A stretch of DNA of 63,696 nucleotides, counting the filler, from Asterionella formosa (taxonomy: Eukaryota): NCBI GenBank assembly GCA_002256025.1. It is 16 parts of 16 records of this genome, joined end to end, with 100 filler letters (N's around TTAATTAATTAA, not from the genome) between each part and the next. Parts side by side here need not be neighbours in the genome. Positions count along the whole stretch, not along the records: positions 1 to 21,822 come from NKIB01002940.1; 15 more parts are not named here. One strand, given 5' to 3'. Positions 1,058 to 62,014 of this stretch are shown piece by piece. The notes beneath the pieces are model-generated. The model had not been told where the DNA came from. It did no database searches and saw only the letters and a program-made list of their open reading frames with translations. Every line of letters begins with the position of its first letter. Position 1 is the stretch's first letter. The translations under genes were made by a program, and so were the position numbers.

Positions 1058-1139
1058 TACTGGTACCTGTACCTGGTACCGGTACCAGTGCCTAGTACTG
1101 GTACTGGTACCGGTAATCTGGGACTCCGGTACCAGGTAC
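1058..1139. repeat. TA-delimited CCGG/CCWGG/CTGG mixed micro-array
   Basis: Reads TA CTGG TA CCTG TA CCTGG TA CCGG TA ... TA CTGG TA CTGG TA CCGG TA. Confidence 0.85.
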
Positions 1140-1876: not shown

Positions 1877-3229
1877 ATGAATTGGTCGACGATATGCAGA
1901 ATACAGCTTCTGGTCGGCGCAATTTCCTCCACACAGAATCGTCAGACAGCAGCGGCCACTCTGAACGACGACAAAGGGGCTCAACGTGGCCTTAATCGAG
2001 GAATGGCGCCGTGGATTATGCCAGACTCGCCTTCTGATAGGAAATTACAGAACATCTTCAAAGTCATCGCGCCTCCCCCTAAGCTGGCACCTTCGACTGC
2101 CCCGTCATCAACTTCTGCGCCACAACTTGCAACGACAGTTTTGCCTTCATCAGAACCAACGGCCACCCCGGTTTGGATCCCATCCCAACATCCCAGCGTT
2201 TCCCCCACTCTCGTTTCCATCGTAAAATCATCCATCTCTCCATCAGTCGTTTCCTCTGAATCTCCATCGACATCGAGACCTAGCGGTTCGTCCTCGGTTC
2301 CGTCCTCGGTTCCGTCCCAGAGTCCATCCAAAATATACATTGATTTGCAGTTTTCGCTCTACTCGCCCCACATCAACATTCGTGCCGTGGATGTGTTGAT
2401 AGGAAAAGTGCCGTTATTGCTACAAGCCTTGAAAGTGGCTATTGCTTACATTTTATGCATAGAGACTGATTTTCAACTAGTCGACGATACCATGGAAGAT
2501 ATTTGCAACAATCGCACACGGCGACAAGAAAGTGGTAGCGTGCTTCGCAATGACTTGTTGAATTTCTCGGTCAAGGACATTGACACGCCAGCACTGAACT
2601 ATACTCTTTGGACTATTCAATATCCTGTCATGTCGGTGGGTCAAGTATACATTGAAACTGCGATGATCAATTCAGGAAGTAGACCCTTGGTCGAGGATGA
2701 ATTACTTACGGAGAGCGTTCTTGTCATGGAACGAGTGGGACAACTTGCCCTGATGGTTGGAATTTCTTCGGGTCAGATGGATTCCATGTTGCCAAATGGA
2801 ACACTTACCAGCGTGGTAAAAATGGAGGAGGAGACGTTTTTGACAGATACACAAGTAGAGAGTACTCAGGCACTTAATCCACCAGCAATGAATGCACTCC
2901 GTGTGGCTGGGATTGTCATATTTGTCTCAATGTTTGTTCTCTCGACGGTTTTAGTCCGACTCGCCAGACGACGAAAGAAAGAACGCGAATGGGACGACCA
3001 CTTCAAGGAGCTTGCCAATGGCGGACTAGTGACCGAAGAAGGGTTGAACTATATTTTGGACATTGGTAGGGGATCTCAGTCGATGCATGTCACCAATAAT
3101 TTGGAAGAACCTGAAAATCCTGACGATGACCTTCGAAATATTCCATTGCCGGAAGTATACATGAATGTCGCAGATAGTCAAAGATCACCACAAAGTGTCA
3201 AGGTGGAACATCTGAGGAAAGTGGCATGA
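1877..3229 (+). CDS. single-pass membrane protein with Ser/Pro-rich (PSxxPS) extracellular linker
   Basis: 450-aa ORF with PS/SS-rich low-complexity tract and hydrophobic helix VAGIVIFVSMFVLSTVLV followed by the basic stop-transfer RRRKK. Confidence 0.75.
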   Translation: MNWSTICRIQLLVGAISSTQNRQTAAATLNDDKGAQRGLNRGMAPWIMPDSPSDRKLQNIFKVIAPPPKLAPSTAPSSTSAPQLATTVLPSSEPTATPVWIPSQHPSVSPTLVSIVKSSISPSVVSSESPSTSRPSGSSSVPSSVPSQSPSKIYIDLQFSLYSPHINIRAVDVLIGKVPLLLQALKVAIAYILCIETDFQLVDDTMEDICNNRTRRQESGSVLRNDLLNFSVKDIDTPALNYTLWTIQYPVMSVGQVYIETAMINSGSRPLVEDELLTESVLVMERVGQLALMVGISSGQMDSMLPNGTLTSVVKMEEETFLTDTQVESTQALNPPAMNALRVAGIVIFVSMFVLSTVLVRLARRRKKEREWDDHFKELANGGLVTEEGLNYILDIGRGSQSMHVTNNLEEPENPDDDLRNIPLPEVYMNVADSQRSPQSVKVEHLRKVA

Positions 3230-3798
3230 GTAATTTTCTAAATACCGGTACATTCTTTCTCAAGCGATACGAGGAGTCTTGGAAAACATGAGATTGGCGA
3301 AACTTAAGTGCAAGTCTGGTTGTCCTCGAAAACTGATCACTCCTATACCGGTACCTGGTACCAGGTACCTCCACTCCACCATAGCCTCTCCTTCGAATGT
3401 GCAGAAGTGTAGCTAAGACAGGGATATTTTCACACAAAGTTATTATTAGGTAGCCTATATTCGCTACCTCTCAATTCGCATTTAGTCTATTTTATGAAGT
3501 TTTAATACTAGAATACCGGTAGACAACCAGGTTACCATGTGCACTGTTGATCGATGATTAGAGCAACGATAGCAGGCAAATAATATAGCGGTAGGTCTAT
3601 GTAATAGGTACGATTTGCTAAGCTGGAAGTCCACAACAAAACAATCAGGTAATGATTCCACTTGATTCTCAGCCAGTGCGTTTGAGATTCGACCTATTAC
3701 TAAAATTCTAAAACATAAAAAATCTGAGACTCCATTTCCACGTCAGCACCTCATTTTACATATCATGTACCAGTACATTCTAGCTCATTAACCAGTTA

Positions 3799-9038: not shown

Positions 9039-10256
9039 TGGGAATCATAAGATGTAGGAAAGATTAATGCATGTTCAGACGATATTAAGACTATGATAGA
9101 TATGCAGCCTTTGAAGATTTGAAGTATTCATAAAAGTAAAATGTAAAAAATCCATTTCAACCGGAATTTTAAATTTAACTCTACAGTCATAGTTGAGCTC
9201 TCCCAGGTATGTCATCCGCACCTTCCGCGGCAAAATTCGTTCCACTCATCATCACGAAAGTGGCTTTTACAGATTCGACATGTCCCGCAGGCAACATAGA
9301 ATCGAGTGTGACATTAGTGTTCAACGCGCCTGTTGGATCCGTTTCCATTGCCATTCTCACTACTTTTCGTTTCCCCAACCTGTAAATCGCTGCAACAATG
9401 AGCATGTTGCAAACCATCATGATAATCCCAGCAACACGAAGGGGATGAAAAGAGGTGGGCTCGAAAGGATCGTTTTGTTAATCATCGTTTCCTCCTCCTC
9501 CTGTAATATTTATGTTCCCCTTTTCAATATTGTTGGCGTTTTGTTGTGATGAATTTCGCAAACTATGAACTTTTGCAAGCGAAATGTGGATCGGTAATAC
9601 TTGTCCTGTGCACAATTTTGACGACGAGTAACAAAAGTAGAGGGAGATCCAAACGAAAGAAAGAAATTGTGTTGCTTTTTTTTCGAAAGGTGGATACCGG
9701 TATGTTTAAAAGGCGCACGTAGTGCTCTTGACATGATAATACGGTATATATATAATAAAAATGGGAGCAGGGGCGTACCTGGTGGTACCGGTACCTCCAT
9801 GATAGTTGGCAGTTCACAACATACATACAAGGAGTATGAATGGATAAAAGATATACACCAAGGTACCAGGTACCAGAACAAGTTGCGGTAATATTGCTGA
9901 AGCCAAAGATTTAGCTATTTTTATCCAAAATTAAAATGTTAGTGCAAACAAATTGAACGCAACTTGCACAGGTACCGGTACCCTGGATACTAGAGGAGTA
10001 CTGTATGGGTGTGATCAATAATTCCTGATACGTGTTGGCCGAAGGCGACAAACGTTTGTAGCATGGGAGGGTCTCGGCTATTTTAGTTTTTGACCACGAA
10101 GCAATGTGTTTGGATAAAATAGAAAACAACGTAAATTACTATTTCATCTCTATAATTACTTTCACTTTCTACATCAATCCAGTCTCTATATACTAACCTT
10201 ATACCACAATTCACTTCACTCGCAAACCCACATGAATGCCACGAAATCGCATTTGA

Positions 10257-11484
10257 TCAAACTCCTTCAAAACTCTGAAGAGTCCCAAGAGGCGATGCTG
10301 CCACTTGTTTGGCCCAGTTGGATAATAACGTCACTAGCTGTCCCTGCTCCGCCTCGGGAGCTGAGAACAGAATACTATCCTTGAGGCACGAGTGCATCTC
10401 ATGCAGTTTGGTTTGAAATACTTGGACATTACAATCGTCTTCGGCAAAGGGATTTGAACAAAATTGATCCAATTCTGAAAAGGCTTGATCGAAATCAATG
10501 CCAAAAGGATCAAGAAATTGTTCCTCATTCGGGAGCTGAGGTTGGCGATCTGGAGATGCCGTTACTTCATCGAGGTCCATACCAAAAGGATCTAACAAGG
10601 GGTCGTCTGAGAAGGGCATCATCAATTGCCGATTAAGGCGCATGGAGGGTTCCATACCTGGGATTGGGTGAAAGTTTCGGTTAAAGATATCTGGACTCAT
10701 TTCTACATGTGGTGGGAATAGCGTAGGTGGAACAGTATTCATAACCATTCCATGGCTGAATGCTCGGGTATGCTTGCTACGGCGAGCGGATGTTTTTTTC
10801 ATTCCCCGTCGGGCTGACACGGGCGATTCCTTACTGTGACCCTTATTAATGGCACGCTTGGCGGAAAAGTATACATGAAGCAATCGATATTCAAGATCTT
10901 CCTTCCCATCTGTTCCATACTAAAAATTTTCCAAGGAAGTGCGACGTGGACGTGAGCAATACAACGATTAAATTCCGAGATTTCCACAGACTAACTCACC
11001 ATGGTCCAAAGCGCTCCTCCTTTTTGACTACTATAATCTGGGTCTCCCTTTGGGTAACAATATCTCTGCTGAATGGCAGTAGGATGGGGAAACTGAGGTC
11101 CACTGAGCGACCAAGGGCAAGTTGCGGGGAGAATGTCCTGCATAACCATGTGCATTAGCGACGATGGGACCATTGGCTGGTCTGCGGCTTGATAAGATTT
11201 CTTCTTCTTTTGTGGCTTCAGAAGAATAAAAAGTCCATCTGTTATAATGTATTGTATCAGTTACAGTAAACTTATCTTGTCACAAACACAAATGCAAACA
11301 CACACACACATCATCATCATCATGACCCACCTTCAAATTGGTGCGATGGTGGCGACAACTTCAAGCCGTCCGGTCCAACAGGAACAATTTGAAATTCCAA
11401 ATGAACAGGAGGAGGATTATTATTGTGTACGGCTTCAAAGATCGCTCGCACATCTAGATCAGAGAGACGACGTATGGTTGCCAT
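10257..11484 (-). CDS. hypothetical protein, 351 aa, 3 exons (11484-11331, 11238-11000, 10919-10257)
   Basis: GT-AG introns 11330-11239 and 10999-10920 join the frames into MATIRRLSDLDVRAIFEAVH...DGLFILLKP...QRYCYPKGDPDYSSQKGGALWTMYGTDGKEDLEYRLLHVYFSAKRA followed by a basic, then acidic, tail. Confidence 0.8.
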
Positions 11485-11997: not shown

Positions 11998-12365
11998 TAC
12001 CGGTACCTGGTACCTGGTACCAGGTACCAGGTACCAGGTACCATGTCAGTGCCCTTGCACAGTACCGGTATCTTTAAATTTCAGGAGCCACAGGCAGCAC
12101 ATATATCTAAAAAATTGAATCAGCTAGCGTGTAGGTACGTAAACGGTACCAGTACTGGTACCTGGTACCGTGTTTCTTCCACATGTGATAAATGGATAAA
12201 AATGATGAACAGATAGATCCATACATACCAGAATATTATCGATAGTAACGGTACCAGGTACCAGGTACTCGGAGTACCTGGCACATGGTACCATGTCCAG
12301 TGTGGTACCAGGTACTCCTACCAGGTACCTGGTACCAGGAACCGGGACCAGGTGACACCGGTATA
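11998..12365. repeat. TA-delimited CCGG/CCWGG arrays in divergent intergenic region
   Basis: 11998-12040 = TA CCGG TA CCTGG TA CCTGG TA CCAGG TA CCAGG TA CCAGG TA; further clusters at 12145-12170 and 12250-12365. Confidence 0.9.
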
Positions 12366-14849: not shown

Positions 14850-17294
14850 TGCTCAGCGTGTGATCTATATCCTTCAGACAGGATGAGCCTTGTTGTAGTT
14901 CACCCTTTTACCAGGCACCGTATCTTCTTGCAATCCCTGATGATAGTCGATGGACGAATACCGTAAAAAAACTCCTGACTACGTAAGATTGCTGTATCCT
15001 GGCATGCAACAGTTTAGGTACCAGGGTACCGGTACCTGGTACCCTGGTATTCAATTTTTTTTACTGTGGGGACAAAGCAGCAAAAAATACCGGTATGTAA
15101 TACCTATATGAATACGCGACATACCTACCTACTGTCATTATCTAGGACTCCACCTGGTAGACATCAACGAACAAGCCTGCCGTTTGGCAGAAACAATTTT
15201 CACTGACTCGTCCGTTTCGTCAGGAGTCCTATGGCTATGAAATCCCTCTTTTCCGGTATACCGGAAGTTGCACCCAGACTTTAGGTCACTGCCTCTCATG
15301 GAGCGCAAGCTCCGAAAATTCTCTGGGTAATAAATGGCCCTGCCTTCCTGTTCAAAAATTATTCCGAACCTAATGGGTGTATATATAATACATGTTCTAT
15401 AAAGTCTAGAATTACGTGAACCCGACCTCGATTGATTTGTTTTGGCGCGTTTTTCGTAGAATCGCGCCCTGATTGGAATGTTTGCACTGGACGGCCCCCT
15501 GTTTTCGTTGACCCTTTGTTAGTCAATACGGTAGACATACGAAAAAGGATATATGTAACACCGAAACAGTGACAATATATATATACCATCGCCTATTGCT
15601 CGTTTCGCAACCACAAACAAAGGGAGGCTGATGAGACCGACTACCGATTTATGCATGGCCAGCCCTGTCATAAATCCGGGCTTGCACCAAGCTATATTAT
15701 TGGAGGTCTGTAGAACGAAATGCTCAGTACTTTATTTAGCTTTATCTCTTTGTAGTAAATGCCGATATTAGAGACACATATACAGGTCAGCATCCTGGCC
15801 AACGAAGATCTATAGCCCTAAACGATATGCCAGTGTTGCTATTTAGCGTCTTCAATTGTGCTCAAGGTTGCTGTCGATGTCAGTGGTTTTGGTAAACAAG
15901 GTTATTATTCTTTTCAACTGATGGGGTATAAATCTTTATGTCTGGGTGATGTGCAAAACTGGGTTGCTCATCCCTTGCTCCCGTCCAAGGATACAGGTGA
16001 TCTAATCAACAGCAACACAATGTCAATTGGGTTGTTCAGACCCTTGCTTCATGTGTAAATATGTGAAACAAATCCGTTGTTCACACAGTAAATATTGTCA
16101 TATTGCAAAAGACTAGAAGTTTTGCGTACAAACTGTGAGAATACCCCATTTTAGGCAGTCATCTACTGGTAAGCAATCATGGTGGGCCTTGCTCAGTTTT
16201 TGACTTAAGTGGTCATGTCCATTTTTTACAGCTTGCTTTTTATTACCGGTAGTTGCTGTATGAAAGGGCTCGTACATAAATATTTTGCGAACCCAAGCCG
16301 TGGTTGGACCATATCCTATGTATGTAGAGCGAAAATGTTAAAAGAAGCAACTGAGCGAGGAGAGGATGGCTGACAATTCCTACTTAATTACTAGGTAACC
16401 TCCGTGCTCCTTAACATTAGAGGGTCTACATTCTACACATACGGCATACCTAGTAGTGCAACAAGGTACTCGGAGTACCCGGGAGAAACATGTACTTACT
16501 ACCAAAAAGTCACTTGAAACATAAACCTGGTACTGACATCATGTTGACAATTCTTAGCTGGCTGGCTATCCTTGTCCGCTGTTGGATGGGTTTCACGGCA
16601 GCCATGGCACCTGCCGTCGTCCTGTGCCCGCCAAAGTATTCATGGTACGCCAGCACGCATCTCAGGGTCGACGTGTGACGGCAAAAAAATCGCACCTCGA
16701 GCTGTATCAAGGCGGCTTCCTCCTCAGAGGCATGTAGACTGGTGTGTAGATATGTAGAAGATGTACGTCTTGTACTTGACCTATCCCAAAGAAATGAGTC
16801 TTGTAATTTCTTCATATGTTACCTTCGTGACGCAATAGAAAATTTGGCTAAAGTATTCGAATTCATTATTTACGAGGTGGCCGCATATTTGTGAAGATAC
16901 CATCGTGCGATGGCACGTTCCACTATCATGCATACGTACATATAAATCGAGAGCCGTTGCATCTGTGTTTCCCGCCGAGTTTGCTGCGCGCCAAAACTTC
17001 GAGGGAGGGAATGTTGCGATGTTGCCTTCAAAGCACACGAAACACCCAATTTAAAGAGTATTATTTGCCTCTGGGTTGCATTACATACTTCCTTGCTGTT
17101 GCTTACAAGGTTGTCGCTGAATGCACGAATAGCTTAGGTATCGTTTTTTGGTTGAAAGTAGAAAGGAACCAGCTAGAACGGGAGAGAGCAAGCGCGGCTC
17201 CAGTGTGCCATTTTTCGCATACCTCTGCTGAGCCCTTCCGAGTACCTCTTTTGATTCAAGTTTTGGCGTACAGCGTGGAGCGCAAAACTCCACA

Positions 17295-21922: not shown

Positions 21923-24900
21923 AGCGTGGATGATAATGAGGTAGATACTGATGAAGTGGAGATCAGACTAGTCATAATACCGGGCATATGCCAGAAAGTT
22001 TGATCTTTGTCAAATTGGTGAGCTTCAACGCTGATGACAGTAGGTTCACCCAGCCACGGAGCAGCTTGACTGATATGTGAAACCGAAACTGTGGAACCCC
22101 TAGATACTTTTCTGTTGAATGCAAGTGGAATATCCGGATATTGACGGAGGTATTTCGCAATTTGTAGTAACGCATCAAAATGTAATGATCCAGGAGCATT
22201 TTGATATTGAGCCAGCCTTTGTACTGCTGTTTGTATATCAAGCCTAGTCCATTGGCATAGGTGTTGAAATTGCCCCAACAACGTCCTATATTCAAAGCCA
22301 TAAAGTTGAATCGCTTTATGAAGTTCACTTGGAGAATATGGTATAGTACAACTAGCGAGTGCTTCTTCATGTTGTACGCCACTGAGCATAGGAATCATGT
22401 TGGTTCTCGAGATAATTTGTTTATCCCAGGACGAACCATAAACATATTGAAGAACGTCATGAACCATATGAGTTTGGTCAATTGTCATACAATTGGAACT
22501 AAACAGGAATCTGAGACCAAAAAAATGAGAGACTTGCCCCATATTGTGTATCTTCCAGTGAGATTCAAGAGTAGTAACAATATGGTTGTATGTATCCAGT
22601 GACGAAGTTCCAACCAATATATCATCAGTGGCTCTGGCTAAGATGACATGACATTGATTAATTGTACCTTGGTAGATGCATTGATCTGCGCGATTTTTGA
22701 TTAGGCCCAGTTGTCCACAGAGCACTTTATCAACATGTTCTCCCCATTCTCGAGAAGCATCTTTGCGCCCTTGTACATGAGCAAACATTTCCACACCCAA
22801 GCTTTTCCAAGATTGTTTGGCCAGTGGGAATGTGTGTTCAATATTTTTATATTGAACTGGGAATCGTCTGGTTTGATACCAGAGCATATATTCAGGAAAA
22901 ACTTTGAGCCAGATACGGTTCCCTGCTGCATTAGTTGGGGCAGGAGTATTTTGAAAGGCATTGCTAATATCAAGATGATAGAAATTGTAATGCATATACG
23001 CACGTGCCAATGGCCAAAAAAACTTTGATCGACATGGCGAGTATGGTGGGAGCAAAAGATTCAGTATAATCCACTCCTTTAATTTGATAGCTGCCATTCA
23101 CACATAGCCGAACTTTGCGATCATTTATCTGTTTGGCTGAATTCACCACATGTTTGAGAACCAAAACAGCTGGAAGCAGAGTTGCATCATGGGGTGGAAG
23201 GCCTGGAGCGCCAAAGGTCCCAATGCTATGACAGTTATCTAGATGATGAAAGAGAGCTGCAGTCCATTCTCCTCGAAATGGTCATTTCATTGCTTCATGA
23301 AATGATTGTGGACAGAGTGTATTGGGATGAGAAGTGATGGAAGAGACAGTAAATCCTGACCGAAGCGTACTGATATCCCCTGCACCAAAGGAAAATGTAT
23401 CTTTCCAGTCATGGTTTGTGCGTGGTTTCTTCACCGACAGTAGAGTGAGGTTGGTGAGCATACCAGGAATGAATCGTGGATCATGAGGATCACTTAAAGA
23501 AAGATGCCCATGTGTAGCAAGGACATATCCATCAAGTATCTCCTCAGCATCATTGATAGTGCATACGTCATTTCCGTTGATCTGTTACAGCACTCTACCC
23601 TTTAATATTTGTATAGGGCCTTTCGTCATACGACGCCCGAAAGCACTATTGGGTTCAATCCCAATTATCTCACATCGTGCTAGGTCAGCATGGTAATGGA
23701 GAAGTAAGCCATGTGCCTCATCTGGTAATTGATCAGAAATTTCTGTTACGGACATGTCGTGATTTAGCCATGGTGAACAACTTGGGATAAGATCAGAGAT
23801 TGCTGTTTTCAAAGCGGCCGTGTGTGGTGAAATGGAAACATCAACAGCTGAGTGATTCAGGAGAGTTTTTGCTGCTGGAGACCGATCACTAGGAAGTCTG
23901 TGAACACAAAGTTCATCAACAACAGCATGATGAGCATATTGAACCCGGCCGGAATCCCCAATATATTTGTAGATATGCGCAGTCCCTTGGAAACCAACAA
24001 AAGTCCCAAGAAGTGTATTAGATTCAGGACGATGCCGACTGGCGCGTCGATTCTTGACATGGAGTGGTGGAGAGCCAAAAATAAAGGCCATTGATAAATT
24101 AGGTGCATGTTTGTGGAACACTTCATGAGGGGTGCGACCATTATGGGCATCACTAGGCCGAACATTAAGAAGAAAAGTGGCATATGTGACAGCAAAACAC
24201 CATAGTGAGGGATCCATTTGTGCTCCATATAAGAGACATTGAGCAGTGAGTCCAATAAGTTTAATGGAGATCTCAGCTTTTCCGTTTTGCGAGGATGAGT
24301 ACACACCAGTGGGCTCCACCGAGATGTGCAGCAGAGACAACTCGGTCTTGAGCATGTGGTTAGCAAATAATTCCCCATCCATACGGATACGGCACACACG
24401 GTTGCCAGTCTGGATCTGCAAGTGTTGGATGATCCAAAGGATGAGTTTTACTGGTGTAGTGCGTGATTGACAACAGAATGTCCAACGATGATTAGAGATT
24501 GCCTCTGTGACTACTAAAAAGCATTTGAATCCACAGTAGGATTGTTTACCATAGAATCCAAAATCCATATGGATAAGACTTCCAAGAACCTTGAAAGGAG
24601 ATTCAACAGTAGGACCTCTGGATAAGGAGGGCAGTTTTTCTTTGAGACAGATTGGACAGGAAAATGTGTCTGGTATAGGGACATTCAAAGGGAGACCCAT
24701 AACGCTTGTTCCATTGAGCAATAATTCCATAGCACGCCGGCCTGGGCAGCCCATTCGAAGATGAATGAGATGATAAAGTCCTGATGGTTTCATGGTTTTG
24801 ATAAGGTCAATAGCAGAGGTGGTAATCCCTAAAGACGGTTTATGTAAACGGACAATGATGTAGTCTGCATCATCAAAGGTCAATAACTTGAAAGAATATT

Positions 24901-27628
24901 CTTTCCCATTGGGAGGTTTTAACCATAACAGGTTACCTGTGCGACGAAGTTGATGATCAGCCTCATAGCCTAGGCGTTTGAGAGCATGAATACTGAGGGA
25001 GCGCCGCCGATAGTGTGGCATTTCCACTGTGTTGGGAAGTGATACCTCCAGTTCAACAGTTCTATCTGATGAAATGAAACATGGATAAAGTGTGCCCATG
25101 TATCCAACTTCATCGGCGTCACCAAGTTTAGCAGTCTGGCATAGAACAGTGGAGCTCACAACATTGTGTAATTCGTTGCTCATGCAAGTGACATTCCCAT
25201 TTGCTCCAGTGTCCACATGCATCAAAGTTTCACCTTCGTGGAGGTTTGCAGCAAATTCCAGACCAGTGGTGGATGAGGAAGTGGAGGAGTGCGGTAGAGA
25301 GGAAGAGATATGTGAAAGAACTTCAGTGGGATCAGAGTTTATCAGAGCTAAGTCATCAACAACCTTGTGTGAATCACGAATATCAGCAACAAAAGCGACC
25401 ATGCCTGTGTGATAAACTGGGGAAGATGTGATAACCTGATCATTGTCAATATCATTAAGTCCAGGGGATCTAGGAGTGGGGACATCCCAGCTGTATTGGC
25501 TGATAAGAAAATGGTGCAATGTTATACATGTTCTCTCTCGATGTGATATGTATATCATCTATGACAGACTGAAGGTGTGTAGGCTCCGCATTTTTGTCCT
25601 CAGGCATGGTGGAAATAGCCTGAACTGTAAAGAGTTAAGTATTTGCTGGAGTGGTGTCTCATGGACCAGAGCGACCAAGAGAACCACGAGGAGGTCGAGC
25701 GGGGGTTGCATCAAACGGAGGGAGCCGAGCAATTTTAGCAGAATGTGCTTTGACAAGTAGTTCTTTTCGGTTGTCTGAGAGTCTATTGAGATGCCAACAA
25801 TCGGGCGTTTTATGGTTACTACCAAAACAAATACAACAACAGAGAGGGTCATGTTTGACACCACACCAAGGAAAGAGACATATTTGGTGAGGATTAGGAA
25901 CTCTCGCGCGATTAATGGCCGAAATCATGAGCGCATGAATGGGATTATGGTCATGAGTAGTGGTATCAGGGTGGCCTTGAAGAGCACATTCCAATGTGTG
26001 TGCAATGTCAATAGTAGAGACTGAAACCATATCAGCATGAACAGGTAGAGTGATCCCATGAGTGGAACGATGGGTGCAAGGAGTAGGTAAATGTTGGAGG
26101 AGTGATTTGAGTTTGTTGTATAGACTTTCCACTTGTAATTTCTTGGGAATATTGTTTGCCGGAAGGTGCTCTGAATACAGTCGGAGATCATTTGTTTTGA
26201 TAACCCGGAGTGCAAATAATTCTTCTTGAAGATAGTGAGCGTTGACTCCTAAACCATTTAAATAATGCAAGGGAATGTCCACTTTACGAAAAGTTGAATG
26301 TTCAGGGTAGAGATGCAAGAGAGCAAGCCATCGTGTATATTGCGTATTGTAACGAGTGAGGCCATCCATTGTGGTCTGATTTCCAGTAAGCGTGTATTGA
26401 GGCGCCTTTGCTGTATGATCAGGGAAACTAGGGGCTTGATTATCTCTCAGACCAGGGTGAAATAAGAGTAAAAAATCTTGAAGCACACCAAATCCATCTC
26501 CAGTTGGGCTATATTTCTCAAGTATGTCCTTAGCTTGATTACCCTGGTGAAGTGGAAGTATGTCGCCATGGTTGAGAGCAGAATAGAGAATGTTGCTAAA
26601 TCGACAATTTTCACCTTGAAAATACTGAGGAGTCGCTGTTATACCAAGTTTGGGACCAAATTTGATGTGCATTCCTTCAAGAAGCTCACCATCAATTGGA
26701 GAATCTTGGAGATCAGCATCATAGACCATGTCAATGACTTTTGGGAGCAAATCCATGTGAAATCCTGTGGAATTGAAGGCTGCGCAAAGTGTATTATACC
26801 ATGCAAAGAAGTGTGCGGAATCAAGTGTAACAAGTTTTGTGAATGTTTTACTAATTTGGGCATATTGACCACCATAGGACCAAGAAGAGTACTAGTGGTT
26901 GAACTTTGGAACCAGGCAACTTCAGGAGCATTAGAATTACAATGCAAGGAGCGGATGCGGATATTTCTGAGATAGTTCGTGAGTTCTTCTTCTGTAGCTG
27001 GAATGGGGCGGAATCTTGGGAAGAATGGATTATCTGCATTGTAGGCAGCAAGATGATCATTAAATGGAGGGTCAGCTTCACTGTTGGAATGAGACTGGTC
27101 AGATGAGGTGGATTCTGGTGGATCATCACCTGGATCAGGATCATTATCGTTGTATGACTGGTGATGCTGGTGTGACAAAGAAGGACGAAGTGTAGAGGAC
27201 TGAAGTGGTGGCTGCATACCTCGGCGGACATGGTAATTTTCCACAGGGTGCATAGAATAACGGCCGTCGTGTGTTATGGTATTTAAAATTAACCGCTCCT
27301 TTACGTAAGACTGTATGCAGGACTCAATGTTATTGAGTAGCTCCGCAGGTAACGTGGGAGTAGGGGAAGAGGGGAGAAGAACAGATGTACGAGTATCAAC
27401 AGTATTCCCGTCTGTAAGAGTATCATACTGTTGGCCACTATAAGTAGAGCGGGCGTCCAAAGGTATGTTTCGAGTCATAGAGACTCGACTGTGGGGGGCA
27501 GTATTGAATCGCTCTTCAAGAGACATACGGTGGTAGGAATTACGGCGTCGACCACGTGTCATGATGTGATCATGAAGCGGGTCAGATTGTATGCTGATCG
27601 TCATGGGGTAAGGTACGACTTTATGCAT
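21923..27628 (-). pseudogene. gag-pol polyprotein broken by stops/frameshifts (fragments 27628-26639, 26756-25659, 25558-23585, ~23300-21923)
   Basis: Consecutive domains lie in different frames; in-frame TAA at 23585-23587. Confidence 0.85.
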
Positions 27629-28060
27629 AGTAGGATTAGTAGGAGCCGCTGAGTGGACACGTGATGTTGCAGAAGGGGTTCCAAGTGTCTTGAGTAAAGA
27701 TGCCAGCTGGCAATCCGAACCACGGAAAAGATGTGGTTGGCTGGTAGGAGAAACGTCTGTGATATGTGGGTAAGTGCCATGAAGGCGTGTGGAACGTCAG
27801 GGGTGCTCAGGGAGTGCAGATGGTGGTGTTGTTGTTCATGTTGTACGAGCATGTTGGGTAGCACAGTCATGGTCGCTCATAGTTCGGGTGTATGTCAATT
27901 GTCGAGACGACATCCTGATAAGAAGAGTAAACCAAAAAAGATTGTGTAGAGACTATGATTCTTTGTGTAGAGTCTATGATTCGTCACTTCCACTTATCAA
28001 TGCTTCTGCAATGGTATCACCTGGTACTCGGAGTACAGCTGGTAATCAGTACCACGTCCC

Positions 28061-28268
28061 TGGTACGGAGTATATAACAGGTACTCTGATACTTCGGAGC
28101 TTCGGAGTACTTGAGGAAGTCTCGAGTACCAGTGCAGCTGTACGGCGGAATATGTCCCTGATAGCTGGTACGGAGTATGTAACAGGTACTCTGATACTTC
28201 GGAGCTTCGGAGTACCGGTACTTGAGGAAGTCTCGAGTATCTGTACAGCCGGTACAGCGGAATATGTA
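28061..28268. repeat. two-copy ~105-bp tandem repeat in the Copia 5' leader
   Basis: TGGTACGGAGTAT..AACAGGTACTCTGATACTTCGGAGCTTCGGAGTAC starts at 28061 and 28166. Confidence 0.9.
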
Positions 28269-29200
28269 CCGGGTACCTGGTACCTCGTACGCAGTGATAA
28301 TTAAGTAAGTAGTGTAGCCTATGCACTGTACGGAAGCTTGGTATGCTTACTGTACGTGGATGGTGTTGTGGATGGGACGATCAGCGATTCGGTTGTACAA
28401 TGAAGTAGATTGGACTACGTAGGTTTGTACGGTCGAAATTACTATGACGAAAACAGAAGTGATAACTTGCTCAATATATTTGTCCGCCCCGCCCTAATAT
28501 GTATCAATGAACGTGGATGGTCTATCCAGATACCAAGGATGCCAGTCACAGTGAAATGATTGATTTTCGTCACAATTTCGCTGTAGCAATAACAGTGACG
28601 AAACGAAAAACGAAAAAGCAAGTACGATGATTGTCCTTGGTGCTTCTGGTTCACAAGTGAACCGCACGACACCCAGTTAGATAAACCCCGTAGCCGGCAA
28701 CTATCGATGTACTGTAGATCAATAGTGCAACAAAGTAGTGCGTAGGTTTGCGATTACGAACGACGATCACCACGTAGTGTAATAATTCCGTAGCGGAAGA
28801 TCTGACTCAACGAGAACGAACTACCGGAGTAGTGTATTGTGGTAACTGGTAAACAGTACTTATGAAACACTCGTGCACAGATGATCGTTTACAGTAGAGT
28901 ATTTTCGTAGCCAAAATAGTGTGAAGATATGAAAACGATTCACGACGAAAAAAGAAAAACGCCGTTGACGATGTGTTGCAAATGAAAAGCAGGCAACCTT
29001 TGAATGCCAAATAGCACTCTTTTGATAAAGATTGCTCAATACACTTGTCTACTTCTGCTGTGTGTAGTATATAGATAGACAGATGTAGCAGCCAAATGAA
29101 TGATGCGAAAACAATCAAAAGCGAACGAGATTTTTCGATCGGCGCCAACAGTGAGATCGAATTAACAATCAACAATTTCGTTTCTTTCAAGGAAACAGCT

Positions 29201-29213: not shown

Positions 29214-29453
29214 TGCAGTGAAATAGGGGACGAGAGAGATCGACGAGGTCGATGAACGAGGAGACGATAGAGGAGGGGAGTCCGATAACTAACCTGACAA
29301 GCTCAAAAGGAGATTGGAAGGTGTGTTTGTTAAAAGAGTGATTAGATAAAGTTGATATAGAAGAACGATGATTTAAATAAGATGCATAGGTACTGTCAGA
29401 CAAACAGACACATACATATACTGACACGTCATGTAAAGGGGTGATTCACAACA
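29214..29453 (-). repeat. 5' LTR of the Copia element (~240 bp)
   Basis: Minus strand TGTTGTGAA...TTCACTGCA (TG..CA, 7/9 inverted repeat), abutting the PBS. No second LTR is available to confirm the outer boundary. Confidence 0.7.
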
Positions 29454-29556
29454 TCGTTCAAAATTATTCTATAGAAATTCGCAGTTCCAGGGAATCTCGG
29501 CAACTGTAAGCAATATTTTTAATTTTGCCTAGGGGTTCAAATGCAGGAACCTTAAA
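29454..29556. repeat. dispersed repeat, inverted copy at ~51733-51835
   Basis: TTCAAAATTA..GTTCCAGGGAAT..GGCAAC..TAAGCAATATTTT..AGGGGTTCAAATGCAGGAACCTTAAA matches the reverse complement of 51733-51835. Confidence 0.8.
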
Positions 29557-39749: not shown

Positions 39750-41453
39750 ATGAGCAGCAAAGTAGTGGGTACAGCTGAAACTTCTGATGCTGCCTCTTTT
39801 CCCATTTTGGAAGAGAATCAATGCATTGTAGCTGATGAGGATGTCGAAGATATTGTTGAGTTGTCTACTGCTGGTCCAACCAACATTGATGAGATGGGTC
39901 CTCCACCTGAAATGAAAATACCTCCAACTGCTGGTACACTCGATGTTAACGAGATGAATCCATCCAAACCTGCAACTGCTGGTGCACTTCTTGACATTAA
40001 CGAGATGGGTCCCCCTGAAAAGAGGAAACCCTTTCCCGGTTGTCTAGCCAATATTGATGAGTTCGTCAACTCGCTCATAGTACCAGATGACTTTGTTCTG
40101 GATGAAAGTGGGCTGGGATTGATTCATATAAAAGGAATTGACATATAACATAAATCTGTCAAGGTACTTCGAAAAATTTGCGTGAGATTTAAAGTGTCAG
40201 GGTACAGGAATGGCAAGAAGGACTTCACTATTTCCTTAATTGTCCGTTTACTGAAAAGAGACTGGCTGTTTGGTCAACTATTACCCCCCTCTACTATGAT
40301 CACTTATAATGAAGTGATTGGCATCCACAACAACAACAGGAACAATGATGAATCTATTATTGAAGATGAAGAAAAGAGTTGTGGCAATGTTGAAATGGAC
40401 TATGATTGTTCACAGAAAGGGAAGCCAGATGAAGCAGACAAAGACCCTGAATATGTTCTTAATTCGCAAAATAGCAGTGATGACGATAACAAATCATTGC
40501 CTCTTCCTCCTCCTGTTACAAAGAAGGCAACAAAAAGGAAAAAGGCTACAATAGCAAAATCAACTCCTCCAAGCAGTGTTACATGTGCTAACACATATTT
40601 TCGTGTCATCAAGGTGTACATGTGTGAGCAACACATAAGTGATGTGTTGATGCTTGGTCAGCCTCCAACTATGGCTGAACTGGATACAAGGAAATTTAGG
40701 CACAAATACATTTTCGATAGACTCATAACTAAATTCCTTGATGATGAAGATGATGACAGCAATAATCTTGCATTTTCACAAGATCCTTATTGGGAACAAA
40801 TGGGAATAGACAGTTGTTACCCAAAGACGTATGATACTCTGTCCTCTGTCGAATTTTCTATGGCAATGAGGTACATTAAGTATCATTACCAAATCGCATA
40901 CAGGAACAACAAAAAGTCAGGAAGTCATGATGACTTTGTTAATTTTGTTGGAAGCCGACCTTATATATATTATTCCCATATGTGGTTGTACCAAGTTCCT
41001 CACCTTCTCAATTTCGCTGTTCCATTGCTTCCAAAATCATCATTCCATGAAAGTGCTGATAATGCCAAATCTTCATCCTTATCATCGAAGACAGTTGACT
41101 CGAAGAAAGGAAAATGTTCATCTACTTCATCCAATTTGTCCCATCATTCCTCTTCTATGGTACAAATGGCAAATGCATTAGAGTGTTTTGAACGAGTAAA
41201 TGCAGTGAAACTTCAAGTGCTTCAATCTTCAGCAGGACCAAGACGCGAGAAAGAGATCCTAGATGTTCTGGATCTCTATACAAGTCGTCTCAAGAATGCT
41301 CGGAAGGATTTGGAAGAGTTGGAGAATCATGGGTATGACTCCAATAATTCTGATGTAGTTCAGGCTCGACTAGAAATTAAGATATGCAAGAGAAATTGGG
41401 ATCACTATTTTCATCTGCTTTCAGAAGGTGAAACATCAGATAAATCCAACTAA
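39750..41453 (+). pseudogene. Harbinger accessory ORF with one in-frame stop (TAA 40146-40148)
   Basis: ORFs 39750-40148 and 40182-41453 share one frame; ends with a coiled-coil-like region; contains YRNNKKSGSHDDF. Confidence 0.7.
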
Positions 41454-41473
41454 TGAATAAAATATATATTTGT

Positions 41474-42772
41474 CTACATTAAATTTATTGCATATAATTC
41501 TTTCCTTCTCCTCTCTATATTCACAGAAGGTCGTTGCAAGCCCAAGGTTTGCAATCTGGTTAGAATCACATCTCGCATCACAGAGCTTCCAGGCAATTTA
41601 CACAATGGTTCCACAGTTGGCAAGTAGCCCCAACCAAGGGGTGACAAACTGACTGAAATCATCTCTGTAAGTATTAGATAATCATCCATAATCTCGTTAT
41701 CAATTATCTTCTCATTAATCACATAGTTATGAATACGTGCAGATGTTTCCAAGCTTGTCGATAGGTTTTTTTTAGATCACACCATTTTGTCTGAAGAAGA
41801 CCAAATGCCATTTCTATTCTTATCCTCAGCTGTGAAAGGAAAAAGTTAAATGTATCCTGTGTTGGATCATCACGTTGTGAGCCAACAAAGGGAACAAGCA
41901 TTACATCAGACAATGTGTAAGCTGCATCGCCGACCAGACAAAAACCTGTGTTGAATGCTGCAACTCGATCGAAAATGGAAGTTCGTTCAAAAGCTACTTG
42001 CTTGGTCACTGCATTTTCCCGGTGCAATCACACCAAAATAAATAAATCTTGAGTCAGCATCACAAACAGCCTGGACATTGATTCCATAAGTCATGTAGTG
42101 ACCGGAAAAAAATGAACATGGGTTGTTGCCACTTTCAACTAAAGTCAGGCGGTTGATGGTGGCTAGGAAGCCGTCAATAGCACCAACACATCCTCTCATC
42201 ATACCCTCTGAGCTTTTGCATTCAAAGCTGGAAGCCAATTTGATAAATTCTTCTTTTTCTTTTGGAAAAATAATTTCGAGTTCTTCACAGTTTAGTACAT
42301 CATCAATGAACAAATCACGACATCGATAAAGTGAAGCAATGCTACAACCGTAGGCATGACGAATGTCGATGTAACTGCCACCAGCCAGCCATCGCAAACC
42401 AATGGCTACCACAATTTCGGGAATTATGGGCTCAGAAGTGCCACATTTGGAATAATTCCCTGCAATCTGAATTTCCAGCATGGAGGTGAATTTTTTGAAT
42501 GCTCTGTGTGACATTCTGTATGTCTTCTCGAAAGCAATCTTGTGATTGAGTTTCTTGACATGTGATTGCCAGGAGATTCTTTCGTGGTGCCACTTGTGAC
42601 TTCGTTGTCGTCGTCGTTCAGATGACTGAAGCTGCCGTTTACAGCGTCGCCTTCGTCGTTTGGATGAGTGTTCTTCTTCCTCTGCTTCCTTAGCTAAATG
42701 ACAGAGGAAGAAGAAATCAAGATCACTACTGTCATCGTCATTATCATCAAGTAAATCAAATGGCGACGACAT
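41474..42772 (-). pseudogene. Harbinger/HARBI1-type DDE transposase, frameshifted
   Basis: YRMS...F, LRWLAGGSY, GCVGAIDG, INVQAVCDA, VGDAAY, FNFFLSQLRIRIEMAFGLL, ARIHNY spread over three ORF fragments. Confidence 0.92.
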
Positions 42773-43837
42773 GATTCATGCAAATGTGTGCTTTTAATAT
42801 TATATTTAGTTTCCCGGTAATTATATTTTGTTGTTGCTTGATATCAAGACCATCATTATATTCCGGAGGGATATACACATGATCTTCGCCAGCCAGTTGC
42901 CGTTGAAGATCCATGTTACTCCATGATACAATGTGATCACAAATTAGTGATACAGTGACACTTTTGGAATGAATGAAATTCAGTTCAAATCGAGTCACTG
43001 TTGCTGATACATTTTCAAAAAATTTCAAATTCCGTGATACACGAAAAAAATGATAAGAACCATCCTAAATCTAATGAAAACTAGGATAAAGACAATATTT
43101 CTTGAGATATGAAAGATTCTAATGTCATCGTTTTGCCTTGTCATAAGGATGACTCTCAATATACCGGTATCACTTTTTAATACATACATGAGGAAATTTT
43201 TATCATCAATTTTTTTCCCGATTTTTTTTTGATGCCACAAAATTATTACCGGTAGTCCGTTACTGATTACTTACTACTCACATTATTTAGTATCCCTTTC
43301 GATGTTTTATTCCCATAATAGTAGTCGGTTTCGTTGATACTCCACTATTTATATTTGGTTTCGGGTCAAATGCAACTTTAATTATTTATTTTGGTGACGG
43401 TTTAAGTAATATTTAATTACCTCTATCGCGTGACAGACAGCCTACCACTTGTTGTTTGACAATCCTCGTACATATAATATGTAGGTCATACAATACTTGC
43501 TGACTGTATTCCTGTCGTATGACACGTATATGTAATATGCCGGCACCAGTACCCTAACATAAAATATTATCCAAAGGAGCAGCAAACAAGAATGTGACGA
43601 CGAGCATGGCTGTTGAAATGGTCCGTACTCCTTCCCGCGGGTTGGGTCTCTCTTCACGTAGACTCTTACGTGATCGTAGTACTACCTAGTACCACTTACT
43701 TTCTCTCTTGTCTCTGCTTCTAGCCTTCCTGCTAGATNNNNNNNNNNNNNNNNNNNNNNNNNNNNNNNNNNNNNNNNNNNNTTAATTAATTAANNNNNNN
43801 NNNNNNNNNNNNNNNNNNNNNNNNNNNNNNNNNNNNN

Positions 43838-51702: not shown

Positions 51703-53627
51703 TAGAGATACCTGCAAGTTGCAGTCATTTTGTTTAAGGTTCCTGCATTTGAACCCCTATGCAAAAATTAAAATATTGCTTAGGGTTGCCAAAATTCCCT
51801 GGAACTAAGAATTTTTATGAGTTAATTTTGAATGACGTTATTCCATTTGAAATATTTGAATGACTGGAAATTTGCGCGTACATACATAGATTCCTTTTCG
51901 AAATCAATAAATATATACATCAACATTCCCCATCGCTCAATGTTTATATACCCTATCATACAATCAACATTTATGTGTCAGACAAGCTGGCAGCATGGCA
52001 AATATTGTTGATGACTACCGGTAAGAAACAAAAAAAGCAACAATCAACCATGAGCGAAATTACACATCAAAATGATGACAATGGTAATGACGAATTTAAC
52101 TATAGTCATAATAGTTGTCCTACCTGTCAAGACCGGTTGATTGTAGATTCGTATGTGGAGGGATGTGAGGATTGCATCTTCTGCGAATGCTGCGATTTTT
52201 GCTGCCCTGAATGTCAGTGCCGATGGGATGAAGTCGAAGAGTCGGTGGAGAAGTTTCTGGAAGGTGAATCCATTCTTACCAGGTTGAAGGATGAAGACAT
52301 NNNNNNNNNNNNNNNNNNNNNNNNNNNNNNNNNNNNNNNNNNNNTTAATTAATTAANNNNNNNNNNNNNNNNNNNNNNNNNNNNNNNNNNNNNNNNNNNN
52401 GAATGCATCCACATTGCCGTATCTTTCGTCAGTCAAGTTGATTACCAATGCTCCAACTACAGCGAATGAGAAATAATGCATTGTCCAATGGCGGTTTAAT
52501 AATTGGTTGATTGGATTGCAAGCAAAACGACAGCCAACAGAAGGGGGTCGATGACGACCGTCGGATTTTGTTGTTGCATATACCGACCGGTGGTACGCAA
52601 AATCATATGTAGTCGTCTACATAGGTTGCTCAATTTTTATCTCTCTCTCTGTAAATGTGTATTGCGGGATGTATTTTCCTAAAATATGGAATACTGATAG
52701 GCTTTTTATGTCCTGTCGAGGTGGCGGAGCGATTGAAGATGCACAACAATACGACGAATCAAGTCTACGTATGTAAATGCCTCTGATGGTTGTTGTGAAG
52801 TTAATTAACTTTGGCGCGATGAACTTGGAGCAATGGGTGTAGTACCAGGTACCGCACATTTTTTTCATGCGCACATTTTCAGTTTCGACCCACCCCCAAT
52901 GATTCCTCTCATGCCTGCCAGACAAGAAGATAGGCCAGCTTTTGATGGAAATAATAATCCTTAAGCAATTTTGGAAAACATCAATCTTATTGACCAATGA
53001 TGATTTGCAGAATCAGTTGTAGAATCAGTCTCTGAACACGACTCGGATTTGCTGACTGATGAAGCTGTTCAGCAAATTGTCTCCTAGCTTTGGAATACAA
53101 AAAATAGGAATCATCTCATTCGACATTTAGAACTTTCTGACAATGACTTTTATTTGCTGACTAAAAATATAACTTGCTGACAACAACTAGAAGTTGCTCC
53201 TGGCAATGATTAGAGTTTGCTGATGATGACTAGAACTTGTGGATACAAATCGATTTTCTGAATGCTGACCCTTATGCCCATGAAGTATACATATGATCAG
53301 ACACAACCACTACCCCCTGATAGCCTTGCCAATACTATGAACATATGTAACGTGATATCTATATCCATAGTCACAGTCATTGTCACGCCTGATGCAACAG
53401 CCTATGGGGATAAAGCAATATAGTATGCAATATCATACATATCACATGCATATCACATTTCCTATGGCTGGTACTATGGATATATGCTCAGGGTACCCAA
53501 GGTAGCCCTTGTAGATGCTAGGAAATATTGCGACTTGTTTCTATGTGTTAAAACGCTACAGAGTAGGTCTTGTGAGTAGGCAGCTGGAGAATCCTGCGTC
53601 ATGCTGTCACCGCCTTGACCCTGATGA

Positions 53628-53948: not shown

Positions 53949-54759
53949 CATCTTTGTTACCATCAATAGAGCGACGCAGACGAAGTGGGTCTCTTCATTG
54001 TTGTTTGCTCCTGAAAATGTCGGTGTCCGTGTCCGTGTCATCCTCATCAATAGAGAGACAAGTTCTTTCGTTGGAAACATTGGTACCCGTGGTATCATCA
54101 TTCGCTCGTTGGAACCGCTGTCCGTTGCCTCAAACCTGATTAGCGTCTGAGTACCGGTATGTGCACTGTCGACTTTGGTACATTACAGGCGGAGTGACTT
54201 CGCTACTAAATTGCGTGATATAATAATATACCCTGTAGCACATCGCAGAATACATTTGCTTCCCAATCATCTCATCATGATTGATAAGATGATACTGTGA
54301 TATCATGATAGGGTTACATCGATGCATACATCACCAAAGTATGACACGTAATATTGAATAAAGTACATCACATAGCTATGATACAATTGATCATAAAATT
54401 ATGATGATTTTATCAAATGTTTATGATATAATTTTGATCAAAATATGATTATGTAAAAATAGTACCATGACAATAAAATACGATAAAATATGTACGCAAG
54501 TGTTACCAAGACATCATAAAAAAAAAACAAGCAATCATAAAGTATGTTAATTATTATATGTGTTTGTCGTTTAATGTATACACTTAAAGTCAACACTTAA
54601 TATGATAGTATTATACAGTGGATAGGATCTAAGTATACGGATGCGTTGATATGTGCATCACTATAATATGATTTGTGACATGATGGATTGATGCATATCA
54701 CATACGGGTATCCTCAACAACCAGCCATCACGTTCATTGTTGTGTCGTCTTTCCTTGTT

Positions 54760-58764: not shown

Positions 58765-59284
58765 GACCTGGTACTGGTACCTGGTACCTGGTACCAGGTA
58801 CGCGGTACCCGGTACTCCCTCACAGCCATGCACATGATGATTGGCTTCGGTGGTGCCTGCTATACCTGGTATAACAGTATGGTACAGTACCTGTACCAGG
58901 TACCAGGTAGTCCCTTGTACCTTGTACATATTAAAGCCGCCACATTGGGTATGGCAAGCCCTCATGACCTGTTATCTCCAATTACCGGGACATGATGCAT
59001 ATACCGGTACCTGGTACTCCGGTACCGGTAACCTATTGTCCGCCCATAATTAATTATACCAGTAGACTGACTACCTGTACATCATGCCAGTACCGGTATA
59101 TTCGTTTTATGCTATGTAGGAGCTCCAGGTCTCAGGTTTTACCTGGCACTGCACATGGAACCAGAGTAACGGTACACCGGTGATCAAGTTCGATGGTGCT
59201 ATTAAATGGCCTTTGTTAGTACGAGGAAAACATACGAGGTAGGTTACCAGTTACCTGGTGCCAGGTACCAGGTACCTGGTACCA
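58765..59284. repeat. dense TA-delimited CCWGG/CCGG arrays
   Basis: Multiple GGTACC(A/T) clusters. Confidence 0.85.
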
Positions 59285-60948: not shown

Positions 60949-62014
60949 TACCAGTACCAGTACCAGTACCAGTATATACCGCTTGCAAGTGCGTTGCTGT
61001 AATTTTGCTGAACCCAAGAGTTACCGGTACCAGGTACTGGTAGCTCCTATTCTCTCAGCAGATTACCAACCAGTAAAGTGTTTGTTAAAAGCAAAATGAC
61101 CGCAACTTGCTGGTACCTGGTACCAGGTACCAGGTACCAGGTACCGCTATGCAAGTTGCAGTGTTTCTCCCTAACCTTAAAGGACCGTTTTCTTTACAGC
61201 AACTCCCTGGTATCAAGGTACCTGGTACCAGGTACCAGTATCAGGTACCTGGTGCTCGGTGTATTCTGCAAGTCGTACATTTTTCTTACCCATTCCTATC
61301 TTATGCATGATCAGCATGAAGTACGGTACCTGGTACCAGGTACCCGATACCTTGTTACTGATACGTGGTAGTCTACAGGCTTTGCAAGGTACGGCAGGCG
61401 ACGATTTTGTGCATGCATGTGGTAGAGAAAACTTTGATACCTTTACTCACTTTTTCTTAAAATGGAGTAGACTACCGGTACCGGTACCGGTACCAGGTAG
61501 TCTAGGTCTACTAGTCTAGGTACTTACCGGTATAAAAAGTGCTATATATAACAATTACTCGGAGTAGTCTACCGGTATTTTGTAACATGGTCCCTTGTTG
61601 GGGTGGTGCACGGACAACACACATCACAATTACATCCCGGTAGTTCGAAGTTTATTAAAATCTGGGTACAGCCAGGGTTAGGTATTTGTTTCTGGGTGCC
61701 GGTATGGTGACGACCCGTCCATAAATACGCCTTACTACACTTCATGTCATAGTTTTATTGGTACCAGGTACCAGTATCATATGTGTGAACGACATCAGTT
61801 TATTCTATAAATAATTTTATGTACCGGTGGTACCAGGGTACAGCTAGTTCTTTGCAAATACTTTGATGAACGGAACTCTTAATGTCAATATACCAGGTAG
61901 TGTACAGTTCCGCACTACGGTAATCTAACTCAAATTTTACTCCAAAGCACTATACCGGTCGGTATATAGGTTTCTTACTACCTGGTTCCCTGGGTACCTG
62001 GGTACCTGGTACCA
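60949..62014. repeat. dense TA-delimited CCAG/CCWGG/CCGG arrays
   Basis: (TACCAG)4 at the contig start, (GGTACCW)n at 61112-61145 and 61217-61252, (TACCGG)3 at 61473-61492. Confidence 0.9.

Follow-up and report, generated by a model that had tools for sequence, protein, structure and literature searches.

The DNA analyzed here (the window; 63,696 nucleotides) is a series of 16 Asterionella formosa contigs joined end to end with spacers between them, and counts refer to it unless other DNA is named. It carries genes for carbamoyl-phosphate synthase (CPS), pseudouridine synthase, DNA polymerase alpha, and Sec6, and its non-ORF DNA contains short units delimited by TA, either singly or stacked into arrays. 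The array on which we focused (positions 11998 to 12040) reads directly as six TA-delimited units (i.e., CCGG, CCTGG, CCTGG, CCAGG, CCAGG, and CCAGG, in this order), just as an earlier note on this DNA had described it. The head-to-head spacer in which it lies holds 15 units in 1.64 kb. Most units have TA on both borders. Some are decayed and not cleanly bounded, so that the description of the units as always TA-delimited was somewhat too strict. The arrays and units (no strand assigned) are listed below.

11998..12040: focal array; CCGG, CCTGG (two units), CCAGG (three units)
12063..12334: additional units and arrays within that head-to-head spacer (12063, 12147-12167, 12252-12267, 12306, and 12319-12334)
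1058..1138: two arrays (1058-1084 and 1096-1115) followed by a lone CCAGG unit (1130-1138), all within a high-copy repeat
3243..3521: TACCGGTA at 3243, 14 bp past a stop codon; array 3346-3367; TACCGGTA at 3514
15019..15095: array of CCAGGG, CCGG, CCTGG, and CCCTGG; single CCGG unit at 15088
58772..59281: arrays 58772-58800, 58888-58909, 59002-59016, and 59266-59281, plus single units
60949..61342: arrays 60949-60974, 61022-61042, 61114-61143, 61219-61240, and 61327-61342; polymorphic relative to allele L015
61473..61499: array of CCGG (three units) and CCAGG; L015 has TA and then a foreign CCGGGACTTTTCCC end
61762..62011: arrays 61762-61776 and 61995-62011, plus single units

Abundance and distribution of the TA-delimited words

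The palindrome TACCGGTA occurs 30 times, in agreement with the count of about 30 previously made by eye, while shuffled sequences contained 0.40 copies on average (largest count, 3; none of 100 shuffles reached 30). TACCWGGTA occurs 42 times (0.24 expected), and the CCAG/CTGG words TACCAGTA and TACTGGTA occur 18 times (2.5 expected under an order-2 Markov model). In an unbiased list of every TA-X-TA word, the top entries were CCGG (length 4) and CCWGG (length 5). Two other length-4 words that ranked above CCAG/CTGG appear to stem from the satellite contig at 43838-45165, which is AT rich, with a degenerate short unit and a T-rich run at its end. For the 96 8-bp palindromes of the same composition, the median count was 1, and the second most frequent after TACCGGTA was TGGTACCA (14 copies), which is a junction word of the unit arrays.

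The 90 copies of the commonest words (i.e., TACCGGTA, TACCWGGTA, and CCAG/CTGG) are split between 30.8 kb of ORFs (2 copies) and 31.4 kb of non-ORF DNA (88 copies); the numbers inside ORFs are 1 of 30, 0 of 42, and 1 of 18, respectively. The palindrome had been reported as absent from long intact genes; 29 of the 30 copies lie outside ORFs. The exception, at 50739, lies in a fragment that by eye resembles the end of a copia-type pol and that has no Pfam match. By arithmetic from these counts, the density is about 3 footprint-like words per kb of non-ORF DNA, or about 2% of non-ORF bases. The spread is uneven, with TACCGGTA present in 7 of the 16 contigs and multi-unit arrays in 4. A scan of a viral collection with the array pattern gave three loci (L001 to L003), two further patterns gave none, and a prokaryote scan gave six loci; we treat these matches as chance. 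The viral-collection contigs L001 (20 kb) and L002 (12 kb) have four copies of TACCGGTA apiece and one short array.

Runs labeled algae or freshwater metagenome contain near-identical DNA, and at least half of the words are found in 8 of the 24 runs listed. These runs bear on the explanation that the arrays are an assembly or library artifact, i.e., short-read mis-joins at palindromes or products of restriction and ligation. Short-read contigs do frequently break at arrays, and the array words include common restriction sites. However, independent runs span arrays without gaps (e.g., 3243-3367), the arrays recur, with differences between alleles, in an independent metagenome contig, and ORFs are largely free of the words. 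The gap-free crossings and the allelic arrays make an artifact unlikely, and we assign this explanation only a very small probability.

The same words could instead be binding sites of a homodimeric factor of transcription or chromatin. Selection and slippage would keep and multiply such sites in promoters, and any likeness to transposon ends would be due to chance or to elements with the same site. Among the nine spacers compared (0 to 9.1 units/kb), the highest density is indeed that of the head-to-head spacer with the focal array (9.1 units/kb), and tail-to-tail gaps of 202 and 105 bp contain no units. The words at 3243, 3346, and 3514 are invariant across other samples (3243..3521 is gap-free in a contig of run X2 and, up to 3435, in a contig of run X3). 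The identical 8-mer is an oomycete promoter motif according to the accessible portions of PMC10031896 and PMC3520976 (motif-9), and a footprint origin of the analogous TACATGTA is rejected by the authors in the accessible text of the latter. On the other hand, the words also occur 14 bp past a stop codon and within repeats, the 1.46 kb upstream of the DNA polymerase alpha gene has no units, and the arrays vary strongly between alleles. The spacer that separates the CPS gene from a gene with full-length homologues, both adjoining it with their 3' ends, has 3.3 units/kb, but an ORF remnant (9187-9477) makes it ambiguous. Moreover, a binding site can account neither for one-step clean gains from TA to TA-unit-TA, nor for a transposon end at an array TA of the L015 allele, nor for the identical letters at the tips of TA-flanked TIRs (all described below). 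Accordingly, we consider this explanation improbable.

The ORF remnant at 9187-9477 (minus strand) has weak similarity to the transmembrane portion of the protein encoded at 1877-3229 (pairwise E value, 3e-05), and no homologue was found among longer proteins; its presence weakens the status of 9695-9990 as a clean tail-to-tail gap.

Unit order and variation among alleles

Stacking is far more frequent than random hits on TA would produce, with 64 of the 101 units in the window being stacked (8.7 expected; maximum of 23 in 2,000 simulations). Neighboring units in the window and four loci (52 pairs) differ in 31 cases and are identical in 21, against an expectation of 10.6 identical pairs (P = 0.00035). 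For pairs of CCWGG units, 15 are the same and 8 differ; W switches at most once in any array. The mixed pairs rule out pure slippage, while the excess of identical pairs rules out independent insertion alone; thus, both insertion and slippage act, and slippage or local duplication also lengthens the arrays. Simple slippage would give homogeneous units, as the earlier note argued, whereas 21 of the 27 multi-unit arrays are mixed (6 are homogeneous) and gains that are not duplicates occur; identical neighbors are nonetheless found at twice the chance level. A simple slippage microsatellite, with homogeneous units and alleles differing only in adjacent copies, does not describe these arrays.

Clean differences between empty and filled sites were found at the following positions, of which the second is the weaker pair.

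28060..28283 (plus strand): tandem duplicate (86% identity); TA empty in copy 1 (28108-28109), TACCGGTA in its place in copy 2 (28213-28220)
54152..54159 (no strand assigned): TACCGGTA; two paralogues (about 73% identity) are 6 bp shorter and have TG, not TA, at the site

In the tandem duplicate, copy 1 has a bare GTAC where copy 2 has GTACCGGTAC, a clean 6-bp difference that is not copied from neighboring bases. The CCAGG unit at 1130 is missing exactly (7 letters at 1128, leaving an empty GTAC) from one contig in each of the four runs aligned, and its gain is likewise not an exact copy of neighboring bases; these alignments were made at 80% likeness and are swamped by repeats, and the indels come from the 12 listed among 175. 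A metagenome contig, L015, is an allele of the contig at 60949-62272. Four of its six gaps of at least 4 bases relative to the window lie in unit arrays or create them, and the other two are unrelated 6-bp gaps. Among the unit-related changes, two units (17 bases) are gained without being copies of anything nearby, three identical units (21 bases) are lost, and 7 bases are lost and 10 bases changed at the other two sites. One unit is CCAGG in one allele and CCTGG in another. As a weaker pair, TACCAGTA at 16164-16171 is present in a truncated repeat copy (16000-16207) and absent from its relative in contig L076. At the focal array itself, the alignment of a run X2 contig ends at 12000 and a run X3 contig spans the array with 27 gap letters (net change, -15), which suggests that alleles probably differ there as well. 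Empty and filled TA sites, which the earlier note had proposed to look for, exist (28108/28213, 1130, and L015). These indels are unpolarized, and a filled site could lose its unit via GTAC microhomology. An indel recorded at 15025 (6 bases left out) was discarded, as multi-mapping is likely.

The tandem duplicate adjoins the long ORFs of a copia-type retroelement (21923-28300; minus strand; RVT_2 hit). In one paralogue among P0033 and its relatives (homologous to the window at 52016), the upstream translation would allow an additional CCTGG before TACCGGTA, as judged from the protein.

Growth without any transposon was also considered. A palindromic GTAC or GGTACC seed would expand by replication slippage together with fold-back template switching or templated end-joining, which would flip CCAGG to CCTGG and leave hairpin-symmetric arrays. 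The limit of one W switch per array leaves room for such fold-back events, and the excess of identical neighbors, the CCAGG/CCTGG difference at a single unit, and the 21-base difference of three identical units are consistent with this scheme. So are the 41-bp near-perfect palindrome formed by the focal array and the G and C that flank 22 of 65 arrays (4.05 expected), a bias shown by arrays and CCWGG-type words. Single TACCGGTA words, however, have a GTAC flank in only 3 of 24 cases, i.e., without preference, and thus offer no local template. These mixed flanks also rule out a parse of the words as GTAC duplications, and no preference for scars is evident for single TACCGGTA. In addition, the gains of CCGG (28213) and CCAGG (1130) are inexact relative to neighboring bases, and template switching predicts neither TA-flanked TIR elements with the same tips nor an allele occupied by an element. 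We regard a transposon-free origin as unlikely.

TIR elements and their ends

Repeats with ends resembling the units are present in the window and are listed below.

9873..9972 (plus strand): whole 100-bp MITE with CCAG...CAGG ends and a CAAGTTGCG TIR core; TA at 9871-9872 and 9973-9974
51709..51733 (plus strand): TA and CCTG-CAAGTTGC TIR remnant of the MITE family, broken at an internal TTAA (51734-51737) by a GG-ended repeat
61093..61113 (minus strand): CCAG-CAAGTTGC TIR end, abutting array 61114-61143; also present in allele L015
16000..16207 (minus strand): truncated left-end copy of L076's CCAG-TC element; TA is retained, terminal CC missing; about 70% identity, with ambiguous gap placement

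The MITE at 9873-9972 is short, non-coding (no ORF of at least 40 aa lies wholly inside), bounded by TIRs, dispersed in multiple copies, and flanked by duplicated TA on both sides. It is nested in an array, with a CCAGG unit (9864-9872) on one side and a CCGG unit (9973-9980) on the other. Self-comparison and a motif search located its TIR core, CAAGTTGCRGT, preceded by TA and CCAG or CCTG, at 9873, 9972, 51711, and 61113. A metagenome scan for this core with the flank left free gave at least 118 loci, and among the 118 listed, 5 matched the window by BLAST (L015, L024, L037, L076, and L100) and the other 113 were dropped. L024 and L037 represent one locus, which leaves four distinct loci from this or a close organism. 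Full copies number four (the window and contigs L100, L024/L037, and L076; 72 to 85% identity; differing flanks), with TIR arms of 21 to 36 nt in an element of about 100 bp, and unit arrays adjoin three of the four. The paralogues are without the 2-nt insert at 9877. Depth in the bin at 9757-10277 is far above the single-copy level, for which the arrays are partly responsible.

Eleven distinct ends of the MITE family were compared. An exact TA adjoins seven of them, a one-base variant adjoins three, and the TA is shifted by one base in the remaining one; nine start with CC(A/T/G)G. In the flank-free scan alone, among the matches listed, an exact TA was found at one of five distinct genuine ends; the TA of the others differs by one base or is displaced by one. 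The TIR pattern gave one locus, in a phage, in the viral collection, which we treat as chance.

The earlier proposal of a single element with CCW...WGG termini gives way to at least three end types (i.e., CCWG-CAAGTTGC, CCGG-GAC, and CCAG-TC). The CCGG-GAC end was found in L015. This allele agrees with the window as far as the array at 61473-61499, through its first TACCGG, and continues from there as GACTTTTCCC..., a foreign end; about 30 bases on, the contig ends. In run X19, a loose end behind 1063, where the first TA of array 1058 lies, shares 25 of 28 letters with this terminus. The CCGG-GAC end is thus known from two short contig ends and has no matches in the window. Judged from these junctions, an allele apparently occupied by an element exists in one clear case, at array site 61473, where occupied and scarred alleles can be compared (the far flank of the element lies beyond the end of the L015 contig), and possibly also at 1058. 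No site among the compared alleles combined empty, occupied, and scarred states.

The CCAG-TC end was found in L076, in which an array is directly followed by TA and a repeat starting with CCAGTC. The TA|CCAG left boundary is common to the two copies of this repeat (L076 and 16000-16207). The L076 repeat contains a 14-bp motif that recurs near both of its ends, resembles an 18-member cluster of internally deleted derivatives, and includes remnants of the N- and C-terminal parts of protein P0130 (51 to 62% identity); a right TIR was not seen within L076. P0130 is 931 aa long and has aspartates at 463, 612, and 650 (D-D37-D spacing), which presumably sit in motifs resembling those of pogo. On the basis of these features, the remnants probably derive from a pogo-like D-D37-D transposase. 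P0130 had no Pfam, NCBIfam, or PDB match, including no DDE_1 or HTH hit, its predicted model was unusable (pLDDT, 33), and no relatives were found in the viral collection. No connection between P0130 and the CCWG-CAAGTTGC MITE was found.

The search for TA-flanked TIR elements that the earlier note had suggested thus produced ends starting with CC and flanked by TA, but no intact autonomous element. An intact transposase together with both TIRs was not seen in any element of the window and the metagenome loci, no autonomous partner with the MITE TIR was seen in the window or in the five genuine metagenome loci, and none of the 35 plus 74 ORFs scanned had a Tc1/mariner or pogo Pfam hit. The sole DNA transposase hit among the scanned ORFs was a frameshifted DDE_Tnp_4 (Harbinger-type) nuclease at 40182-42775 (minus strand), which faces a 423-aa ORF without a Pfam hit. 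An ORF at 52050 (P0021) was rejected as a partner gene of the MITE because it lies in the GG-ended repeat inserted at TTAA within the MITE end. P0021 is a multi-copy, Cys-rich protein of 152 aa with no identity assigned by Pfam, PDB, or Atlas; it and P0022, both carried by the GG-ended repeat, may be KolX-like accessory proteins, an identity that found no support in these three resources.

The GG-ended repeat itself (51734-52300) follows TTAA, is nested in the CCWG-CAAGTTGC MITE end at 51734, and has an end that recurs at 29552 (29450-29555). A GG end after TTAA is a Kolobok signature, according to the accessible part of PMC9587614. The high-copy repeat at about 900-1520 (depth of about 1,500 versus about 18) ends near CC and then TTAA at about 1519 and is perhaps another Kolobok-type MITE.

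A footprint model and related systems

We consider it likely that the words and arrays arose as excision footprints, through re-insertion and slippage. The source elements would probably be TA-targeting cut-and-paste transposons of the IS630/Tc1/mariner group and their MITEs, pogo-like in kind. In this model, source ends begin with CCA, CCT, or CCG, and insertion duplicates TA. Excision by staggered cuts would leave up to three terminal bases on each flank, to be sealed by end-joining. CCA and CCT ends would pair over one base to give CCWGG, CCG ends would pair over two bases to give CCGG, and trimmed joins would give the four-base units CCAG, CTGG, and CCTG. Every scar would supply another TA, and two neighboring scars would create GGTACC; fresh insertions at scar TAs, together with slippage of existing 6- to 7-bp units, would then build mixed arrays.

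Several observations are consistent with the footprint model, among them the near absence of the words from ORFs, the pairs of empty and filled sites, the apparently occupied allele at 61473, the excess of stacking, and the differing neighbors described above. TACCGGTA and TACCWGGTA are short inserts with TA on either side, and the resident TA-flanked TIR ends (i.e., CCAG, CCTG, and CCGG) match the letters of the inserts. Ninety-seven of the 101 units can be written as at most three bases of a left end plus at most three bases of a right end, with a unit list picked after the data were seen. From the stacking of units and the nested elements, we infer serial re-insertion into earlier scars. 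The 3-nt stagger, the acting transposase, the direction of each indel, and the preference for scar TAs are likewise inferred.

The chemistry of footprints and re-insertion into a footprint are known from other systems; what appears to be new is how dense the scars are, that they stack, and that several CC-ended families take part. In Tc1/mariner elements, cleavage of the non-transferred strand falls within the element, and 2 to 4 terminal bases remain between the TAs after end-joining (PMC6943129 and PMC6629774, accessible in part). The Sleeping Beauty scars TACAGTA and TACTGTA described there resemble the arrays in having TA on either side of a few terminal bases and two variants of W. Whereas these scars retain 3 bases of one end, the units described here take 4 to 5 bases from both ends (2+2, 3+2, or 3+1), occur stacked, and reach about 3 per kb of non-ORF DNA in natural genomes, where they are fixed or segregating. 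Stowaway elements are similar in their both-TIR footprints, an element beside an older scar, multiple families per site, and enrichment near genes (PMC1925063 and PMC6881990). Their both-end footprints and insertion beside an older footprint were described at one grass locus (PMC1925063), and parallel insertions affect 1.6% of sites in carrot (PMC6881990). Unlike the present case, the accessible parts of these two papers deal with single loci or 1.6% of sites, and they contain no genome-wide arrays of up to six scars and no algae.

Pogo elements with a TA target and long transposases are present in stramenopiles (PMC7386202 and PMC7325037, as far as accessible). They resemble the P0130 element in their TA target, short TIRs, transposases of up to 977 aa, DDxD triad, and occurrence in stramenopiles (PMC7386202), but P0130 has D-D37-D spacing and no match to DDE_1 or HTH in Pfam. 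Among the Mover entries of PMC7386202, the 15 in the accessible part begin with CAC or CAG, while the ends described here start with CC, and no diatom names were found in the accessible supplements of that paper.

In oomycetes, TACATGTA (motif-1) and GTACCGGTA/ATACCGGTAT are reported as promoter motifs (PMC3520976 and PMC10031896, in the portions accessible). Like the words in the window, they are plentiful TA-bounded palindromes of stramenopile intergenic DNA, and one of them is the commonest word here. The difference is that they were interpreted as transcription-factor sites; a footprint origin of motif-1 was named and dismissed, and the accessible text reports no arrays, alleles, or TIR matches. 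No report of genome-wide stacked footprints, or of these words in diatoms, was found among the papers listed in full-text searches outside subscription journals, Repbase entries, and bioRxiv supplements.

Footprints are usually taken as rare single-locus traces, but here they would be among the commonest non-coding words. If the footprint reading holds, the genome is a countable log of past excisions, transposons moving in and out are a leading source of small insertions and of new short tandem arrays near genes, and motif-discovery studies in stramenopiles may have labeled scars as transcription-factor sites. It also predicts that enriched TA-x-TA words follow the end letters of the resident elements across species. 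More tentatively, and with some doubt on our part, scars of CC-ended transposons might regenerate a preferred target, GGTACC, so that the arrays would feed themselves as a ratchet. Several families would then have written about 2% of the non-coding DNA, and the oomycete TA-x-TA "promoter motifs" TACATGTA and GTACCGGTA would likewise be scars of those species' own elements, some later co-opted as regulatory sites. Such a ratchet, if true, would mean that transposons can give rise to microsatellites as well as to cis-regulatory words.

Two further features were observed in the window. A second footprint-like word, TA-CTCSGAG-TA, occurs four times (12266, 16467, 28025, and 61556; 0.02 expected), and a shorter form, TACTCCGTA, occurs at 28064, 28169, and 39206. 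No element with CTCC ends was found in the window; the letters of this word suggest another TA-targeting family with Stowaway-like CTCC ends. Lastly, a leucine-rich-repeat ORF at 55250-55913 contains near-identical 84-bp DNA repeats.
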